DNA of 64,000 bases from an uncultured Methanosarcinales archaeon (GTDB taxonomy: Archaea > Nanobdellota > Nanobdellia > Woesearchaeales > CAZOXR01), in assembly GCA_964566535.1 (NCBI GenBank), contig CAZMIO010000005.1:3271-67270 (forward strand), read 5' to 3'. A program made the translations under genes and the position numbers. Position 1 is the first letter of the stretch; every line of letters begins with the position of its first letter. This document shows positions 2,504-10,400 of the stretch, piece by piece. The notes beneath the pieces were generated by a model that worked only from the letters and a program-made list of their open reading frames with translations, did not search any database and was not told the origin of the DNA.

Positions 2504-2639
2504 TGTTAGTAGGACTGTCTATGAAGTATATAAATATTCCGATATTTGTCCGGTTTTTTGTTTATTTTCTGGACAAATTAATGGTATATATAGAAAAAAT
2601 ATATAAATCTCTTGGAATTAGCTAGTGTTGGTGATAATT

Positions 2640-3905
2640 ATGGATAAAGGAGACAATTATGAAGTTAAAGATATAAAATTAGCAGAACAAGGAAGGAAGA
2701 ACTTAGAATGGGCTGAATCTCAGATGGGTGCTTTGATGAAAGTTAAAGAACGGTTTGAGAATGAGAAGCCTTTGGAAGGCGTTAAAATTGGTGTTGCGCT
2801 ACATCCAACTAAGGAGACAGGAGTTCTAGTTAGAGTATTGAAGGCTGGTGGAGCTGATGTTGCTATATGTGCATGTAATCCATTGTCTACACAAGACGAT
2901 GTTGCTGCAGCACTTGCTGAGGAAGGGATTAAGATATGGGCTTACAAAGGAGAGACTAAAGAGGATTATTACAGATACTTAACTAATGTTATTGAGTTTA
3001 AGCCACAATATACACTTGATGATGGATGCGACCTAGTAAGCGAGATACACAGCAAATATCCTGATCAAATTGAAGGTATTATTGCTGGTGCTGAAGAAAC
3101 TACAACCGGAATTATTAGACTTAAAGCAATGGAGAAGGATAATGCGCTTAAGTATCCTGTTCTTGCTGTTAATGACCTTAAGACGAAACATCTGTTTGAT
3201 AATTTCTTAGGGACTGGTCAAAGTACTTTTGATGGGATACTTCGGGCTTCTTCAATTTTGATTGCAGGAAAGACCGTTGTTGTTGCAGGGTATGGCCCAT
3301 GTGGTAAGGGGATTGCAGAGCGTGCTAAAGGGCAAGGAGCAAATGTGATTGTTACAGAAGTTGATCCGATTAGAGCACTTCAAGCGAGACATGATGGATG
3401 TAGAGTGATGCCAATGTCAGAGGCTTTAAGTGAAGGAGATTTATATGTGACAGTAACTGGAAATAAGCATGTCATAAGAAAGGAACATTATGAAAATATG
3501 AAGGAAGGAGCAATTCTTTCAAATTCAGGACACTTTGATATTGAGATTGATGTTGCAGGACTTAAAGAGCTGAGTGAGAGTGTGAAACAAATCAGACCTC
3601 ATTTTGAGAGATATACTCTCCCTAGTGGGAAGAATATTTATTTGTGTGGAGAAGGCAGGCTTATTAACCTTGTTGCTGCAGAAGGGCATCCAAGTGTTGT
3701 TATGGCGCAATCGTTTTGTGGGCAAGCACTTGCTGCCGAGTATGCTATAAAAAATAAGGGGAAGTTAGGTATTAAAGTTGTTGATCTGCCAGAAGAGATT
3801 GATAATAAAATAGCTGAGCTGCAGCTTGAGACATTAGGTATTAAATTTGATGAATTGACTGAGGAGCAGAAGAAGTACATGGATTCTTGGCAAGAAGGTA
3901 CTTAA
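2640..3905 (+). CDS. ahcY: Adenosylhomocysteinase
   Basis: Motifs CNPLSTQD, LDDGCD, EETTTG, KHLFDN-GTGQS, GYGPCGKG, GEGRLINL-AAEGHP; ATG 2640 preceded by GGTGA. Confidence 0.97.
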   Translation: MDKGDNYEVKDIKLAEQGRKNLEWAESQMGALMKVKERFENEKPLEGVKIGVALHPTKETGVLVRVLKAGGADVAICACNPLSTQDDVAAALAEEGIKIWAYKGETKEDYYRYLTNVIEFKPQYTLDDGCDLVSEIHSKYPDQIEGIIAGAEETTTGIIRLKAMEKDNALKYPVLAVNDLKTKHLFDNFLGTGQSTFDGILRASSILIAGKTVVVAGYGPCGKGIAERAKGQGANVIVTEVDPIRALQARHDGCRVMPMSEALSEGDLYVTVTGNKHVIRKEHYENMKEGAILSNSGHFDIEIDVAGLKELSESVKQIRPHFERYTLPSGKNIYLCGEGRLINLVAAEGHPSVVMAQSFCGQALAAEYAIKNKGKLGIKVVDLPEEIDNKIAELQLETLGIKFDELTEEQKKYMDSWQEGT

Positions 3906-3926
3906 TTTTTATTTTTTTATTTTGTT
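3905..3926 (+). terminator. Oligo-T archaeal terminator-like tract after ahcY
   Basis: tttttatttttttattttgtt directly after the stop; similar tracts follow 4464, tRNA-His and 46288. Confidence 0.45.
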
Positions 3927-4103
3927 CTAGAATATACAAATTGAATCTGGGCTTATGTCTAGGCCTTTATCAGTTATCTGCATAGAAACGGTTTTTTCTG
4001 GGATTCTTGTTGATCTCATCTTTAGGACTTCTATTGCTCTGCACCGAATCCCTTTTTTTTTGATATGGTAGAGTATGATTATTCCGTCTGCTTCGAATTC
4101 TAG
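3927..4103 (-). pseudogene. C-terminal fragment (~58 aa) of a KaiC/RAD55-family ATPase
   Basis: LEFEADGIIILYHIKKKGIRCRAIEVLKMRSTRIPEKTVSMQITDKGLDISPD matches the KaiC-like C-terminal pattern (EF.ADG.I.L...R.IEVLKMR.......ITDKG); upstream of it is antisense pilin sequence, with no Walker A/B. Confidence 0.75.
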
Positions 4104-4116
4104 CGAGGATGAGAGA

Positions 4117-4464
4117 ATGCCTGAGAAATGTGTTATATCCACAGGTTCAGGGTTGTTTTGTGATCCAAACCAAGTTAGTGCAAGTGCATCAGCTAATACC
4201 ATCACTATGAGGGTGAAGAACATATTGACTGACAGCATTTGGGTTGATTCAATAGCTTTAGATGCCCCAGCATGTACATTTTCTACTGCTGACACGGAAA
4301 TAGCTGCTGATGGAACCACAGACATTGCATTAACCTGTGCAGGAGGTCTAACATCTGGTGATAAGATTAAAGGAAAGTTAACAATCACGTATGATGTTGG
4401 AGCAACAGCAGGAGCTGGATTGTCTAAAGGTACAACAGGTCAGTTAGTGACAGTCGTACCCTAA
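4117..4464 (+). pseudogene. Pilin paralogue lacking class III signal peptide and N-terminal hydrophobic helix
   Basis: MPEKCVISTGSGLFCDPNQVS...TTGQLVTVVP is colinear with the full pilin at 4508-4963 from its PEKC motif onward; no KRAQ/AAMEFL leader is encoded upstream. Confidence 0.75.
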
Positions 4465-4507
4465 ATAAATTTTTTATTTTTTCTTTTATTTTTTTGAAGG
4501 TAGTTAA

Positions 4508-4963
4508 ATGAAAAAGAGAGCTCAGGCCGCTATGGAATTTCTCATGACTTATGGTTGGGCTATTTTGGTTGTGTTGATTGCAATTGGGTCTTTGGCTTAT
4601 TTTGGAACTTTGAGTCCGGATAATTTATTGCCGGAGAAATGTTTGATTTCTACTGGTTCTGGGTTGTTTTGTGATCCTAATCAAGTTAGTACAAGTGCAA
4701 CTACTAATTCTGTTGTTATGAGGGTGAAGAATATTTTGAATGATGATATAAGTGTTACTGGCATGACATTGGATGACCCTAGCTGTTCTTATTCTGGTGC
4801 AGGTGTTGTTTCTGCTGATTCCACTACTGATTTTACACTTTCTTGTGCTAGTGGTTTGAATTCAGGGGATAGGATTAGGGCAAGTATTGCTGTTTCTTAT
4901 TCTGTTGGTGGTTCTGGGTTGCCTAAAAGTACATCTGGTAGTTTGACTACTGTTGTTCCTTGA
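4508..4963 (+). CDS. Archaeal type IV pilin-like protein with class III signal peptide
   Basis: MKKRAQ/AAMEFLMTYGWAILVVLIAIGSLAYFG prepilin motif; Ser/Thr/Gly-rich body with 4 Cys. Confidence 0.9.
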   Translation: MKKRAQAAMEFLMTYGWAILVVLIAIGSLAYFGTLSPDNLLPEKCLISTGSGLFCDPNQVSTSATTNSVVMRVKNILNDDISVTGMTLDDPSCSYSGAGVVSADSTTDFTLSCASGLNSGDRIRASIAVSYSVGGSGLPKSTSGSLTTVVP

Positions 4964-5011
4964 AGGTAATTTTCCGATATCTTTTTAAATGTGGTTTGTA
5001 TTCTATTCATT

Positions 5012-5188
5012 ATGGCAAGAGACCAAATAAGCATGCCGTCAGGAATGGGCGGATTAATGCGATACTTTGATGAGTATAAGAGCAAAATAGAGTTTAAACC
5101 AGGACATATTATTTTTCTTTGTATAATGGTTGTTGTTATTATGATACTTCTTTATACTTATGGAGCAGCTCTTTTGGGTATTAGGTGA
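5012..5188 (+). CDS. secG: Preprotein translocase subunit Sec61-beta (archaeal SecG)
   Basis: MPSGMGGLMRYFDEYKSKIEFKP followed by a single TM helix. Confidence 0.85.
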   Translation: MARDQISMPSGMGGLMRYFDEYKSKIEFKPGHIIFLCIMVVVIMILLYTYGAALLGIR

Positions 5189-5194
5189 GCATAG

Positions 5195-5545
5195 ATGATA
5201 CCAGGAATGAATCCAAGGAAAATGGCTCAGGCCATGAAGAAGATGGGTATTCAACAAGTAGAGATAGATGCTCAGGAAGTTATTATTAAGTGTGCTGATA
5301 AGGAGATTGTGATTAATAGTCCACAGGTTTCTAAAGTTAATATGATGGGGCAGGAAACTTACCAGGTTGTTGGTCAGGCTGAGGAGCGGGCATTACTTAG
5401 TGATCCTGATATTAACGAAGAAGATGTTAAGACAGTTGTTGAACAGACAGGTAAAAGTGAAGATGATGCTCGGGCTGCAATTGAAGAGGCAAAAGGAGAC
5501 CTTGCTGAAGCTATTATGAAGTTGAAGGGATTAGATTCTGAGTAA
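5195..5545 (+). CDS. nac: Nascent polypeptide-associated complex protein
   Basis: GMNPRKMAQAMKKMGI NAC domain plus C-terminal UBA-like EEDVKTVVEQTG...GDLAEAIMKL. Confidence 0.93.
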   Translation: MIPGMNPRKMAQAMKKMGIQQVEIDAQEVIIKCADKEIVINSPQVSKVNMMGQETYQVVGQAEERALLSDPDINEEDVKTVVEQTGKSEDDARAAIEEAKGDLAEAIMKLKGLDSE

Positions 5546-5666
5546 ATTATTTAAGTTCTTTTTCTAAAAGGACATCCAAATAAAACAAAAATATTTATAC
5601 CAGCGGCAACTAATATATTGGAAAGAGGATAAATAAAGTTTACTTTTATCATTGTACTATATAAAA

Positions 5667-6122
5667 ATGGAATATCTTGATGAGGCGAGGGAAGAGATTA
5701 AGAGGGTGGACCACTTAGTTTACGTAAGTCTTAAATACACTAGAACCGTAGATGTGATTAAGAGTGTTGTTGAGAGGATAATTAACTCATTTAACTTTGT
5801 GATTTTAGAATTACTTGAGTTTGCTAAAAGCAAGAAGAAGATTAAGGATTATCCAGTTGCTCCAGGGTTGAGATGCGACACGTTAAATAATGTTTTTTCA
5901 GATAATGATGAATTGAAGGAGTATCTTGCATTTTATCAATTACTAAGGAGGATAAGTAGAGCTGATTACACCAAAAGAGAAGAGTACAGAAGACACGTTA
6001 CAATGATTACTAATTTAGATGACGGAGAAGTATTAGAAGTGCATATTGATTTACTTCAGGAATATTATACTAAGACTAAGGCTTTTGTTGAGTTTGCTAA
6101 GAATTTAGTTGAAAATGACTAA
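5667..6122 (+). CDS. Hypothetical protein
   Basis: Long ORF with genome-typical codon usage; overlaps next gene by 8 nt; no recognised family. Confidence 0.7.
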   Translation: MEYLDEAREEIKRVDHLVYVSLKYTRTVDVIKSVVERIINSFNFVILELLEFAKSKKKIKDYPVAPGLRCDTLNNVFSDNDELKEYLAFYQLLRRISRADYTKREEYRRHVTMITNLDDGEVLEVHIDLLQEYYTKTKAFVEFAKNLVEND

Positions 6123-6789
6123 GTTTATTGCTGTTGCTGGAAAAGGAGGTGTTGGAAAGACCGTCACTGCTATAAATCTAGCTTCTGCGATGCATGATAA
6201 TGGAAAGAATGTTATTCTTCTTGATGCTAATGTTGGAAGTCCCCATGTCGCTTTGCATCTAGGTTTTCCTGATGTTCGGGTTTCTTTGCATGAGGTTCTT
6301 GAGGGAAAGGGGGGAGTTTCTGAAGCTGTTTATGTGCACCCTTCTGGTCTGAAGGTTATTCCTTCAAATGTTTCTAGGAGTCAGATTTATTCTAAGCAGA
6401 AAGATATTAGTTCGGTTGCTTTAGAGTTGATTGGGAAGGCGCAGGTTGTTGTGATGGATCTTCCTGGTGCGATTACTGATGATGTGCTTCCTGCATTAGG
6501 CTCTGCTGATGAGACTATTGTTGTTGCTAATCCTGAAATTAGTTCTATAAGTGATGCTTTTAAGATAATGGATACTGCTGAGGGTCTTGGTAGTTTTGCT
6601 TTGGGCGTTGTGTTGAATAGGGCTAGAAGGAATGAGAAGATTGAAGAACTTGGTAAGAGGCAGATTGGAACGATTCCTGAAGATGCTAATATTGCGAAGG
6701 CGATTTCTTTAGGTCATCCTGTTGTGCACAGTTTTCCTCTGTCTCCTGCTTCATTTGAATTTAAAAAATTAAGTGAGCGGTTGGGATAA
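6115..6789 (+). CDS. MinD/ParA-family ATPase (archaeal MinD-like)
   Basis: Deviant Walker A GKGGVGKT, LLDAN, VVMDLP, ADETIVVANPE, LGVVLNR. Confidence 0.88.
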   Translation: MTKFIAVAGKGGVGKTVTAINLASAMHDNGKNVILLDANVGSPHVALHLGFPDVRVSLHEVLEGKGGVSEAVYVHPSGLKVIPSNVSRSQIYSKQKDISSVALELIGKAQVVVMDLPGAITDDVLPALGSADETIVVANPEISSISDAFKIMDTAEGLGSFALGVVLNRARRNEKIEELGKRQIGTIPEDANIAKAISLGHPVVHSFPLSPASFEFKKLSERLG

Positions 6790-6790
6790 A

Positions 6791-7252
6791 ATGAGTGAAA
6801 GCAGATGGACTAAGGAGCACATTGACAAAACGTACGAGATAATTCAGAGGGCTAAGGCTAATAAGCCTGCACATATCAAATTTTTAGATAAGGCTGTTTA
6901 CTGGGTGATATTGTTTTTTGCTATTGTTGGTAATTTTGTTATTTCTATTCCTCTGATATTGTTTTTGTTTGTTCTTTCTCCTTGGCAGATCTATTTGGTA
7001 ATTGTACTGTTGGCTGGAGGTTTTGGTTTTTTGATTGAGATTTTGATTCGAGATATTGAGCATTTGGAGATGAGACATCATGTTGGTTTTGGGTTAGTGA
7101 TTCCGATTATTGCTGTTGTTAATGTTTTTTTTATTACTAATGTTGTGAATCAATTGAAGGTTGTTGGTAAGTTTAATCCTCTTGTTGTTGGGTTGGTTTA
7201 TGCTATTGCTTTTATTCTGCCTTATGTTTATTATAAGTTTTATAAGAAGTGA
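6791..7252 (+). CDS. Membrane protein (about 4 TM) coupled to MinD-like gene
   Basis: Hydrophobic segments; starts 1 nt after MinD stop. Confidence 0.7.
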   Translation: MSESRWTKEHIDKTYEIIQRAKANKPAHIKFLDKAVYWVILFFAIVGNFVISIPLILFLFVLSPWQIYLVIVLLAGGFGFLIEILIRDIEHLEMRHHVGFGLVIPIIAVVNVFFITNVVNQLKVVGKFNPLVVGLVYAIAFILPYVYYKFYKK

Positions 7253-7297
7253 ATTTTCAAAACATTTATATCTTATTAATAATTCTTAAACTCCTAT

Positions 7298-7382
7298 GGT
7301 GGCCATAGTTCAGTGGTAGAATACAGGACTGTGGATGTTTAGCAGCAATCCTGTGATGCGAGTTCGATTCTCGCTGGCTACC
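7298..7382 (+). tRNA. trnH: tRNA-His(GUG) with encoded G-1 and 13-nt BHB intron at 37/38 (7335-7347)
   Basis: Acceptor GTGGCCA/TGGCTAC, D-arm GTTC/GAAT, anticodon stem CAGGA/TCCTG, T-arm GCGAG-TTCGATT-CTCGC; central BHB helix CTGT/GCAG. Confidence 0.93.
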
Positions 7383-7429
7383 CTTTTTTTAAGAATATTT
7401 ATATACTGTTTTAGACTAAATTTTCTAAT

Positions 7430-10400
7430 ATGGGATTGACAGAAATAGTTGATGGTTTAAGGGATTTTGGGGAAAGGAATGCTAATAGATTAAGGAGGTT
7501 TGCTTATTCTTCGCTAGCTTTTGGTATAGCTGCAACTGGTGCTGGGTTTGCGACAAATGCTAGGGCTCAGGGACCCAACATGTTTGTTGATGATAGCAAT
7601 GTATCTGGGATAGAAGATGGAAGCCGAGCACATCCTTTTGATACTATGCAAGAAGGGGTTGATGCAGTTGCTGATGGAGGGACTGTAAATGTAGCATCTG
7701 GTAGATATGATGAACGGATTAGTGTCACAAAAAGTCTTAGTTTAATTGGAGAGGATCCTGAAACTACTGTTGTGTATGGTGTACAGGGAGAATCATTTAT
7801 TCTTGCATTGTTAGGTGGAGAGCATAATGTAAGGGGATTTACTTTTAGATCGTCTGGTTCCCATACAGGGATTTATAGTCAGATGAGTGGGAGTATAGAA
7901 AATTGTTTGTTTGTTGGTAATAGGGATGGGGTGTCTGTAGGAAGTGGGGGGAATGTTGATGTAACAAATAATACATTTTACAGAAATTTAACTGGAATAG
8001 ATGTTATCGGAAACCCTAGCTCACAGGCAGAAGCAAGAATCAGGAATAATATTTTAGTTGGAAGTGATGTTGCTGGATTGAGGGGTTCTTTTTCATCTAT
8101 TTTATTTGCACATAATTGTTTATCTGGGAATAGTCAAGATTTTTTTGATTATACTCTTTCTCCAGATGATGTTGGAAATGTTTTTGCCGATCCGTTGTTT
8201 GTGAGTGATACTGACTTTCATTTACAACTGAGTTCTCCTGCTATTGGTTCTGGAGATGTTAATGGTGTAAGTGTTGATATGGGGGTTTATGGTGGAACTA
8301 ATGCTCCAGGTGTAAGAATATTTATTGATATGTCAATTGATAACACTTATTCATTGAGAGTCACTGAGAATCGACATAATAATACTGTGGGCGTTAGTAT
8401 AGAAGCAAACAATCCTGCTAGCACTAATGAAAATCAGTTAATTAGGGAAGCTGGTTTATTGATACCAACAAGAGCTACACTTGATCCTCAAAATGTTGGG
8501 ATGTACTATCTCGACGAAGGTAGTTGGTATATGTTGGGAGAAAGAGTAGATGATGGCCCACTTTTACCTTTATTTTATGAAGCTTATAAAGTATTCCTAC
8601 CTCCGGTCGCTGCTGTTGATAGTTTTCTAAATAGGATGAGATCTTTTTTTGAATTTATTGATAGTGGTAGAGAAGATATCGTTAGACCAAGAGATATAAA
8701 TTTAAATTCGGGCGATTATATTAATCTTTTAGTTCCGTTTGGATCTGCGCCAATAACACGTGGGCTTAGAATAGAACTACCCAACGCAGGTACTCAAGAT
8801 TTTTTCTTCAAGTTTACTGCAAGCCAATTCCCCGTACTTGATCTTGAAACAAAAATGGAATATGGTATTGAAATAATTGAAGGTCAATCTCCGATTATTA
8901 CAAAGCAGAGGAGAGGTGTGCTTATTTATCACTCTGTAGATCGAGAAATTTTTGTTGAATACTATCAAGTTGATCCTACGTCCCCTTATACTTTGGGAGA
9001 ATCAGGAGAGGTTGCATTGGATATTCCAGCATTTTCTCTAGATAGAGCTATGACTGTTGGGTTAGAGAGGTTGGTTGGAAATGAAGTTCCTGATTTGGAT
9101 GGTGCGTTAAGTCCTGCATTTAGAGTAACTCCGGATGATTTAGACTTTAACCAAGATAATCAGCCAACGTTAAGGATGCGTTATTCAGATGTACTTGCGG
9201 CTCCTGGTAGAGCTATGAGATTAAACCAACAAATGGATAGAGATGTAAAAATATTTCATCATGATGGGAGTCAATGGAGTTCTTTAGATACTGTAGTTGA
9301 TGGAAATTTTGCTTCTGCTGAGATCTCTGGAGGGGGGATGTATGCTGTGGGGGTTGAAAGAGAAGTTGTTATTGACCCAATACCAAGTAATATAATGTTT
9401 ATTGCACAAGATTCTACTCGTTCAAGTTATGAGCTTTATTCAGTAGACCCATTTAGTCAGAGAATAACACAATTAACTAGAGGTCTTGATATCCGAGATC
9501 AAGAATGGTCTCCAGATGGTTCTGGAGTAATTGTTTATTCCGCTGAAAAAAGGCGCGCAATTATTATACCTGACGTGAATAATGGAAATATTTTGGAAAT
9601 GCCTGATGAAGTAATGGATGATGTTTGGAATTATAGATGGTCTCCAGATGGTTCTAAAATAGCCACATTAAGACCTGATGGTCTTTATTTGATTGACACT
9701 GAAGGCATTATAACTGAATTAGTCCGAGGAGGGGTTTGGGACCATTGGTGGAATCCTGATGGTGAAAGTATTATTTATAGTGGGGGTAGTAGAGAACGTT
9801 CAACAGAAATAATTAATATTGATGGTAGTGAACGTAGAAGATTTACAGAGGATATAGATGGGTATTTGTATTGGCTAACTTTTTCTCCAGACAGGTCTCA
9901 ATTAGCTGCTGCTCAAAGTCCATCATATTATGTAATGGACACAGATGGATCAGGAGTTCTAGAATTATACAATCATCCTACACCTAATGCTATGAATCCT
10001 TTATTTTGGTTTCAGGATGGAGGAAGTTTATTTTTTTATAGTAGTCGTGAGCGGCCTGCCGGATTCTACTCTGTAGATTCTGATGGAAGAAATCTTCAAC
10101 CATTACTTGAGGAATATTGGGATTATACAGATTTTGAAGGATTAAGGGTTGAACCTCAGTGGGGTCAAGGAGGAATCCATGGGACACCTTATTCTTCATC
10201 TCCTGATGGGACTATGCTCGCTTTCATTGGATTTTCAACTCCTAATATGGGAATACATGTCTATGATATTGAAGAAAGAAGAGTTAGAAGGTTAACTGAA
10301 GATTTAAGACCCATATTAGGTGATATTCAATGGTCTCGGCCAATAAATCATCTGATATTAGGTGAAGAGTCCCTGCCATATGATACAAATGGTGATGATA

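Follow-up and report, generated by a model that had tools for sequence, protein, structure and literature searches.

How do two genes that have both lost their 5′ ends come to lie head to head with nothing between them? This question is raised by a locus in a 64,000-nt stretch of DNA from an uncultured marine woesearchaeote (Woesearchaeales; GenBank assembly GCA_964566535.1, contig CAZMIO010000005.1, positions 3,271–67,270; hereafter the window, whose own coordinates we use throughout), in which the tail of a KaiC-like ATPase gene on the minus strand meets a leaderless pilin gene on the plus strand, next to an intact pilin gene. The original prediction, made from the sequence, offered three options: a silent pilin cassette or invertible switch, a deletion or inversion scar, or a misassembly. 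We conclude that the two headless genes are very probably the scar of one microhomology-mediated deletion in a decaying type IV filament (T4F) locus.

Remnants of a KaiC-like ATPase gene and a pilin gene

The KaiC-like member of the pair occupies 3927–4125 of the minus strand and comprises the last 65 codons and the stop codon of kaiCa, the gene of a 237-aa KaiC-like ATPase belonging to a T4F cluster. The translation of 3927–4103 matched positions 178–229 of the 231 in the Pfam KaiC model (PF06745; E = 3.8e-10; 40 bits against a cut-off of 26.6), which bore out the predicted identity of the tail. Its predicted length of about 58 aa had to be corrected to 65 aa plus the stop, because comparison with the ortholog of a sister species extends the homology to 4125. 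The sister species, found via its NAC protein (88% identity), is represented by a 15-kb Tara Oceans scaffold (L106). Window positions 3925–4125 aligned without gaps to L106 4513–4713 at 89.6% DNA identity, with the match stopping abruptly at 4126, and the remnant showed 95% amino acid identity to residues 173–237 of the sister's intact kaiCa product (237 aa, L106:4515–5228). Full-length orthologs of 231–237 aa were also present in relatives, at 64% identity in G001 and 59–66% in G038, G027, G039, and G050. The remnant retains the C-terminal segment of the KaiC family, and the window lacks residues 1 to about 171, which bear the Walker A (GxxGxGKT) and Walker B motifs; the sister gene carries GGAGTGKT at its N-terminus. 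A search of the window genome, estimated to be 91% complete, did not find the missing N-terminus anywhere. The codon log-likelihood ratio (LLR) of the remnant, −0.49 per codon, was typical of minus-strand genes. The changes KMRG>KMRS and SAAL>SSSL, considered as signs of relaxed constraint, were rejected as such, since both are also found in the intact gene of the sister.

The pilin member, the 3′ remnant of a gene that we call pilin1, runs from about 4118 to 4464 on the plus strand. It encodes only a beta-sandwich domain of 114 residues starting from the motif PEKC, the class III signal peptide and the N-terminal helix (about 40 codons) being deleted, and it stood upstream in a tandem pair of pilin genes. 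The intact downstream member, pilin2 (4508–4963, plus strand), encodes a 151-aa class III signal-peptide pilin. Over 4117–4464, the truncated copy showed 57% protein identity to residues 36–151 of pilin2, 70% to the homolog G050_a, and 77% to P0002. All 40 other homologs retrieved from a search of 5.8 billion proteins were 139–168 aa long and carried a leader. The N-terminus of pilin2, MKKRAQAAMEFLMTYGWAILVV..., has a class III-type leader and a hydrophobic helix; the leader, MKKRAQ/AAMEFLMTYGWAILVV..., combines a basic N-terminus with a cleavage motif. A class III signal was thus recognized in pilin2 (MKKRAQ/AAMEFLMTYGWAILVVLIAIG; predicted helix 3–31) and not in the truncated copy, which starts past the helix. 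This comparison, the homolog lengths, and the structural model of pilin2 agree with the original prediction that exactly the leader and the hydrophobic helix are missing.

An AlphaFold model of pilin2 built with 41 homologs (pLDDT 88.5) showed a helix at residues 3–31 followed by a nine-strand beta-sandwich, that is, the N-terminal helix and beta-sandwich head of a pilin fold, and in the truncated copy precisely this helix is missing and the beta-sandwich comes first. The top Foldseek matches of the model in the PDB were archaeal type IV pilins, namely 8fk7 (Pyrobaculum), 8q30 (Sulfolobus Aap), 8tib (S. islandicus), and 6nav, with E-values of 2e-4 to 6e-3 and TM-scores of just 0.34–0.43; these low scores may reflect the orientation of the helix in the model. 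No Pfam hit was obtained for these pilins at E ≤ 10, no NCBIfam model reached its threshold, and curated pilin models such as PF04021 did not match; the sole NCBIfam match was a sub-threshold TcpD_dom on the pilin leader. Because no curated model reaches threshold, we use the name pilin on the strength of the leader, the fold, and the genes found alongside in relatives. T4F genes neighbor the homologs in a relative and in the sister (T2SSE with pilins in KY361, L062; two T2SSF genes with a pilB remnant in L106), and the usual layout in relatives is a tandem pair of pilin genes that diverges from a T2SSE ATPase gene (KY361, G050, and G039).

The pilin remnant ends 43 nt upstream of pilin2. This spacer (4465–4507, plus strand) has T-runs after the pilin1 stop and GAAGGTAG ahead of the pilin2 ATG, and similarly short spacers separate the tandem pairs of relatives, e.g., 36 nt in KY361.

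A short shared sequence at the junction

The kaiCa and pilin1 remnants have no spacer and instead overlap in the 8-nt sequence TGCCTGAG (4118–4125, assigned to no strand). The original prediction was therefore right about the missing spacer and slightly off about its place, which it put at about 4100–4116. Across the junction the window reads ...GAGGATGAGAGAATGCCTGAG followed by AAATGTGTT, and the sister ...GAGGATGAGAGGATGCCTGAG followed by TTGAAATCA, with identity collapsing at 4126; the antisense strand of the sister kaiCa reads GGATGCCTGAG followed by TTGAAA. Ahead of AAATGT, the pilin orthologs carry CTGCCTGAA (P0002), TTACCTGAG (G050_a), and TTGCCGGAG (pilin2), which gives the consensus (C/T)TGCCTGA(A/G) AAATGT at the Leu-Pro-Glu-Lys-Cys codons. 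The sequence TGCCTGAG is thus present in the antisense of the sister kaiCa and, with 0–1 mismatch, in the corresponding pilin codons of the orthologs, which stand in for the ancestral pilin1 itself. A junction at 4113–4118, suggested by distant orthologs, was rejected because the sister sequence places it at 4118–4125. The ATG at 4117 and the Shine-Dalgarno-like GAGGA upstream of it are kaiCa antisense and also occur in the sister's intact gene; they are accidental and not an evolved start.

We found the junction on nine contigs of other assemblies and samples: JGI 3300036767, 3300035203, and 3300035202, Logan SRR11826814, ENA ERZ27245245, ERZ27245248, and ERZ27245254, a Tara Oceans scaffold, and BEMA21-1. 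The evidence consists of assembled contigs, whose assemblers and sources include ENA/megahit. Eight of the nine were 100% identical to the window; BEMA21-1 (L058) differed solely by A4063T and A4065T, two single-nucleotide polymorphisms (SNPs) that lie inside the KaiC remnant, change His-Ile to Gln-Asn, and stand beside a run of ten T (4053–4062). The population is nearly clonal, with 99.96–100% identity over up to 17.8 kb. An assembly chimera, in which the junction would join unrelated pieces, might be suspected from the origin of the sequence in a metagenome-assembled genome and from public contigs that stop close by, at 4065 (L052) and 4081 (L069). These ends, however, lie near the junction and not at it and coincide with the two-SNP site beside the T10 run, which explains them better than the alternative junctions for which we had considered them; with nine contigs from different samples and assemblers covering 4118–4125, the probability of a chimera is negligible.

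The missing genes in a sister species

The sister scaffold retains the missing genes between the same flanks. Its flanking genes matched those of the window at the amino acid level (lrp 95%, ahcY 94%, sec61b 93%, NAC 88%, hyp151 94%, and minD 90%), as did a Cys-rich surface protein gene. Between them lie kaiCa (L106:4515–5228, minus strand), kaiCb (237 aa; 5225–5938, minus), a gene for a DUF7504 protein (6028–6603, plus), a gene for the 166-aa membrane protein TM166 (6551–7051, plus), two T2SSF platform genes (7048–8022 and 8022–8912, minus), the last 107 codons of the pilB ATPase gene (8957–9277, minus), and the last 38 codons of pilin2 (9261–9374, plus), the latter with 87% DNA identity to window positions 4857–4969. 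The sister thus has a head-to-head scar of its own, in which the pilB remnant on the minus strand directly abuts or overlaps the pilin2 remnant on the plus strand, and it has lost both pilins. Because this scar is a separate one, the locus is eroding independently, by different deletions, in both sister lineages.

The cluster pilB-T2SSF-T2SSF-TM166-DUF7504-kaiCb-kaiCa was complete in G039 (C1:152122–156787) and G050 (C18, L043) and partial in G038 (C46, L059), G009 (C24, L061), L070, L071, and L073; in a third close lineage (L113), kaiCb-kaiCa adjoin ahcY-lrp. A T4F cluster with two single-domain KaiC-like ATPases and a KaiC-like DUF7504 protein is therefore conserved across this woesearchaeal order. 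When the sister cluster proteins were searched against the window genome with tblastn, only the kaiCa tail was found besides distant paralogs (a 308-aa KaiC on C10 and T2SSE genes on C7 and C2). Nor did the 5.8 billion proteins contain an intact kaiCa product at about 95% identity, the best match after the sister itself (100%) being at 81%. Both flanks of the window are collinear with L106, which has not undergone this deletion, and the left side is also collinear with L113, G038, and G009.

From the sister species and the more distant relatives, the ancestral order would have been ahcY> <kaiCa <kaiCb DUF7504> TM166> <T2SSF <T2SSF <pilB pilin1> pilin2> sec61b>. A deletion of at least 6 kb would have run from about codon 172 of kaiCa (minus strand) to about codon 40 of pilin1 (plus strand); this size is the sum of at least 4.56 kb of sister sequence, about 1.2 kb of missing pilB, the pilB-pilin1 spacer, and about 120 nt of pilin1. 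The divergent kaiCa and pilin1 genes would each have lost the 5′ end, leaving their 3′ remnants fused head to head, with the breakpoint inside TGCCTGAG, as present in the kaiCa antisense and the pilin Leu-Pro-Glu codons. The likely process is illegitimate, microhomology-mediated recombination or replication slippage between these two short direct repeats. The geometry arises because kaiCa and pilin1 lay on opposite strands pointing apart, a single deletion leaves no spacer at the junction, and a breakpoint at TGCCTGAG makes the pilin remnant begin exactly at PEKC. We infer a single event, a microhomology mechanism, and a lack of function in both remnants, which would be pseudogene fragments. 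Of the scar named in the original prediction, the deletion part is thereby upheld by the genes that the sister keeps between the same flanks and by the 8-nt microhomology at the breakpoint, and the inversion part is not. On public contigs the junction was fixed and no exchange of alleles was seen, as the prediction had expected of a simple deletion scar.

Codon usage and history of the pilin remnant

The original prediction had noticed that the truncated pilin prefers A- and C-ending codons where pilin2 prefers T-ending ones. This contrast is real: among 66 aligned identical residues, 28 codons differ in the third base alone, and 25 of these have A/C in the truncated pilin versus T/G in pilin2. 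Its cause lies in strand compositional asymmetry and not in cassette biology. GC skew was sustained at ±0.2–0.3 along entire contigs as long as 332 kb (the window contig C5 and contigs C1–C6), with a T-A skew of about ±0.1–0.2, and codon LLR was bimodal, at +0.31 ± 0.15 per codon for the 395 genes with the G/T-rich strand as sense strand and −0.34 ± 0.16 for the 386 genes of opposite orientation. Third-position C was about 0.05 on one strand and about 0.2–0.3 on the other. The contrast arises because pilin2 (LLR +0.56 per codon) follows this strong strand skew of the genome, which the pilin1 remnant has not taken on; with an LLR of 0.002, the remnant falls within the lowest 1.8% of the 395 G/T-rich-strand genes. 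In the sister, the strand rule holds for every gene of the cluster, which indicates that the locus has long been resident. The asymmetry itself is extreme for an archaeon, and the sister shows the same pattern. Also off-strand in codon usage, and foreign-looking in this 35% GC genome, are GC-rich, Ala/Gly-rich small open reading frames (ORFs) at C1:91257–91583 and C3:62094–62678 (genome G000).

In codon usage, the remnant came close to pilins of the core clade in other genomes (LLR −0.39 to +0.01) and also to a small class of low-LLR genes in its own genome, which includes those for an S-layer-like protein, L7Ae, and S8e together with some GC-rich genes of foreign appearance. Pilin1 may accordingly have been the highly expressed major pilin, under codon selection up to the time of the deletion, or it may have been a fairly recent xenolog. 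On both readings, neutral evolution of the remnant at this site can only have been brief, in agreement with its terminal branch of normal length (0.16; median 0.13) within the conserved core clade of the pilin tree and with its kept invariant residues. Pilin2 lies in another clade, on a long branch of 0.55.

The two window pilins nevertheless share a patch, C-DPNQVS-x-SA...MRVKN (4129–4230 and 4640–4741), that was absent from all 43 other homologs, which have C-x-E-F/Y-T/S... instead. Within the first 26 codons, 22 residues are identical between the remnant and pilin2, against 44 of 84 afterwards. In an alignment of two tandem pilins otherwise placed in different clades, this pattern points to a gene-conversion tract, and because 7 of the 22 identical-residue codons already differ, we judge the exchange to be old. 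Since tandem pilin pairs in relatives are about 90% identical (P0003 and P0004, 91%), such exchange looks common in this family.

Alternative explanations

The patch bears on the most far-reaching option of the original prediction, a silent pilin cassette. In Neisseria, silent pilS copies supply variable sequence to the expressed pilE gene by gene conversion, and by analogy the leaderless, promoterless copy here would serve as a donor converting pilin2. The likeness is considerable: a single 5′-truncated copy without promoter lies beside a full-length paralog, it is undecayed, and the patch found in both copies and in none of the 43 others tells of sequence exchanged at some time. This past exchange leaves a slim chance that the leaderless domain was kept after the deletion as a donor still able to convert pilin2, with the patch as its trace. 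A Neisseria-like system, however, would have several features that we did not find. There is just one truncated copy, and neither 60 relatives nor the 5.8 billion proteins searched yielded another leaderless one. The pilin2 protein is encoded, identically, on 22 public contigs, and its cluster has three members that differ only by T14S in the leader or by start-codon call, so that the mosaic alleles sought in public data were absent, with the reservation that variants were looked up by exact protein sequence and rare ones could be missed. No full-length pilin1-like allele exceeded 77% identity in the protein search. Over 3000–6500, both strands lacked a guanine-quadruplex motif (no run of three or four G-tracts), and no repeats were seen near the locus other than the gene homology itself. 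The exchange behind the patch is old, the sister has deleted both pilins, and the truncation point was set by microhomology with kaiCa and not by a cassette architecture. We therefore regard a silent cassette, too, as very unlikely.

The head-to-head geometry could also mark one end of an inverted segment, either fixed or still flipping, and the codon usage of the remnant, midway between plus- and minus-strand genes, is what a recently inverted gene would show. Yet the inverted matches near the locus were weak, AT-rich, and chance-like (72–93% over 12–29 nt), no recombinase was encoded among the ORFs at 1–11 kb, and the reciprocal junction, which would hold the kaiCa N-terminus and the pilin leader, was absent from the genome, where a search for a lone pilin leader was also negative. 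Possible sites elsewhere, near the THUMP methylase homolog (C2:213222–214361) and near serS on C21 (serS follows the pilin pair of KY361), held no remnants. The remnant keeps the normal tandem spacing and a T-rich terminator ahead of pilin2, and to either side of the gap the gene order of the sister follows that of the window, for which a plain deletion suffices; a recent inversion was rejected as the cause of the codon anomaly on the same two grounds, and an inversion, fixed or flipping, is a very unlikely origin of the junction. The codon anomaly might also speak for imported pilin DNA. Homology-facilitated illegitimate recombination, anchored on the right in the pilin2 leader and on the left at TGCCTGAG in kaiCa, would in one step have deleted the cluster and brought in a foreign fragment, which would explain why the remnant fits core-clade pilins elsewhere better than its own strand and falls in a different clade from pilin2. 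The lineage-specific patch argues instead that the remnant and pilin2 coexisted before the deletion, and since the putatively highly expressed resident genes for the S-layer-like protein, L7Ae, and S8e show the same codon pattern, a highly expressed resident major pilin explains the anomaly equally well; import is improbable, if less so than the other alternatives. The remnant might, finally, be a new functional gene for a leaderless cytoplasmic beta-sandwich protein, starting at ATG 4117 (or 4075) by way of the accidental GAGGA. It has an open frame of 115–129 codons, an ATG with this motif 9 nt upstream, and no decay. But it has no promoter region of its own, its start and Shine-Dalgarno-like motif pre-exist in the kaiCa antisense of the sister, the four conserved Cys of its domain are typical of proteins outside the cell, different gene callers give different ORFs here, and the sister has lost the gene altogether, so that we give this origin as little credence as the cassette.

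Several observations weigh against a plain deletion scar. The pilin1 sequence at the breakpoint is deduced from its orthologs, so the microhomology could measure 5–8 nt. We found no genome with a complete pilB-pilin1-pilin2 arrangement between these flanks, so the ancestral order had to be reconstructed by combining two lineages with different deletions, and the stated size of the deletion is a lower bound. The pilin remnant shows no decay, having no stop or frameshift and, read against the alignment, all residues that are invariant in the family; this would fit either a recent deletion or retention by selection. Its codon usage, too, misfits its strand and is explained only in part.

A microhomology-mediated deletion nevertheless places the locus within a process known from reductive symbionts and other small-genome prokaryotes. 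As there, two truncated genes are fused at a short repeat of both parents, the intervening genes are kept in a sister, the remnants lack a promoter and 5′ end, and the sister locus is eroding independently. Nothing essential differs here; what is unusual is that a whole T4F assembly cluster conserved across the order has been lost while one pilin stays intact. Like the archaeal type IV pilins of the Sulfolobus Aap and adhesive pili and of Pyrobaculum pili, pilin2 has a class III-type leader, a hydrophobic helix, and a beta-sandwich head, and its homologs lie beside T2SSE/T2SSF genes; unlike them, the woesearchaeal family reaches no Pfam or NCBIfam threshold and resembles the solved structures at low TM-scores. 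The intact kaiCa orthologs likewise recall the KaiC-like ATPases of the ArlH/FlaH type, being single-domain proteins of the KaiC/RecA fold encoded inside a pilB/T2SSF cluster and giving weak NCBIfam ArlH and FlaH hits. They differ in not reaching the ArlH equivalog (52 bits against a cut-off of 215) and in occurring as two paralogs together with DUF7504, and in the window only the last 65 residues are left.

Neighboring genes and annotation of the locus

On the left, the locus is anchored by ahcY (adenosylhomocysteinase; 2625–3905, plus strand), which is convergent with the KaiC remnant, was assigned from its Pfam families, and corresponds to L106:3105–4367. The order lrp-ahcY-...-kaiCa is kept in G038, G009, L106, and L113. 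The ahcY gene of G009 (L061:592–1957) aligned in two pieces, to residues 11–142 and 113–425 of the window protein, and may contain a frameshift or an insertion. On the right, the anchor consists of the sec61-beta and NAC genes (5012–5545, plus strand), also identified by Pfam. The sec61b-NAC-hyp156-minD block is kept in 29 relatives, and in none of them did a pilin or kaiC gene lie within about 1.3 kb upstream of the block. In most relatives, gyrA and a THUMP methylase gene precede sec61b-NAC; this link is broken in the window genome and in the sister, and the present place of the block after the ahcY/T4F block is an older rearrangement common to both species. Between the pilin2 remnant and sec61b, the sister has a 99-aa ORF (L106:9416–9715), which four further contigs of its species also carry. 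The window lacks a counterpart of this ORF, and 48 nt (4964–5011) separate its pilin2 from sec61b.

Public gene calls over 3927–4464 disagree. JGI annotates a 91-aa "ATPase" (3927–4202, minus strand) and an 85-aa ORF (4207–4464, plus strand), and others call a 129-aa ORF (4075–4464). On the minus strand, the KaiC frame extends spuriously through the antisense of the pilin remnant (4126–4388) as part of a 153-aa ORF (3927–4388), and this extension is not a gene. The 153-, 129-, 91-, and 85-aa ORFs are all artefacts of the two gene remnants.

Implications

The anatomy of this locus is real, its cause is ordinary gene decay, and it adds a new example to a known process. It shows that a head-to-head pair of truncated genes can be a plain deletion scar, and that ORFs called here by public pipelines are fragments of two dead genes, which is of direct value for annotation. 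Were the remnant a donor after all, it would be the first pilS-like cassette for antigenic or phase variation in an archaeon. A recent survey of archaeal T4F systems contains little on DPANN archaea and nothing on truncated pilins.

For the organisms themselves, the comparison reveals two sister marine Woesearchaeota that are independently dismantling the same conserved pilus-assembly cluster with its two KaiC-like ATPases. The window lineage is left with a pilin without machinery, pilin2 now being an orphan beside its lost assembly cluster, and the sister with machinery without its ATPase or pilins. Together they give a clear snapshot of how a surface appendage is lost by reductive evolution in DPANN archaea. 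The conserved T4F cluster with its two KaiC-like ATPases deserves a description of its own, and this cluster and the extreme strand skew of the genome may prove of greater value than the scar that led to them.

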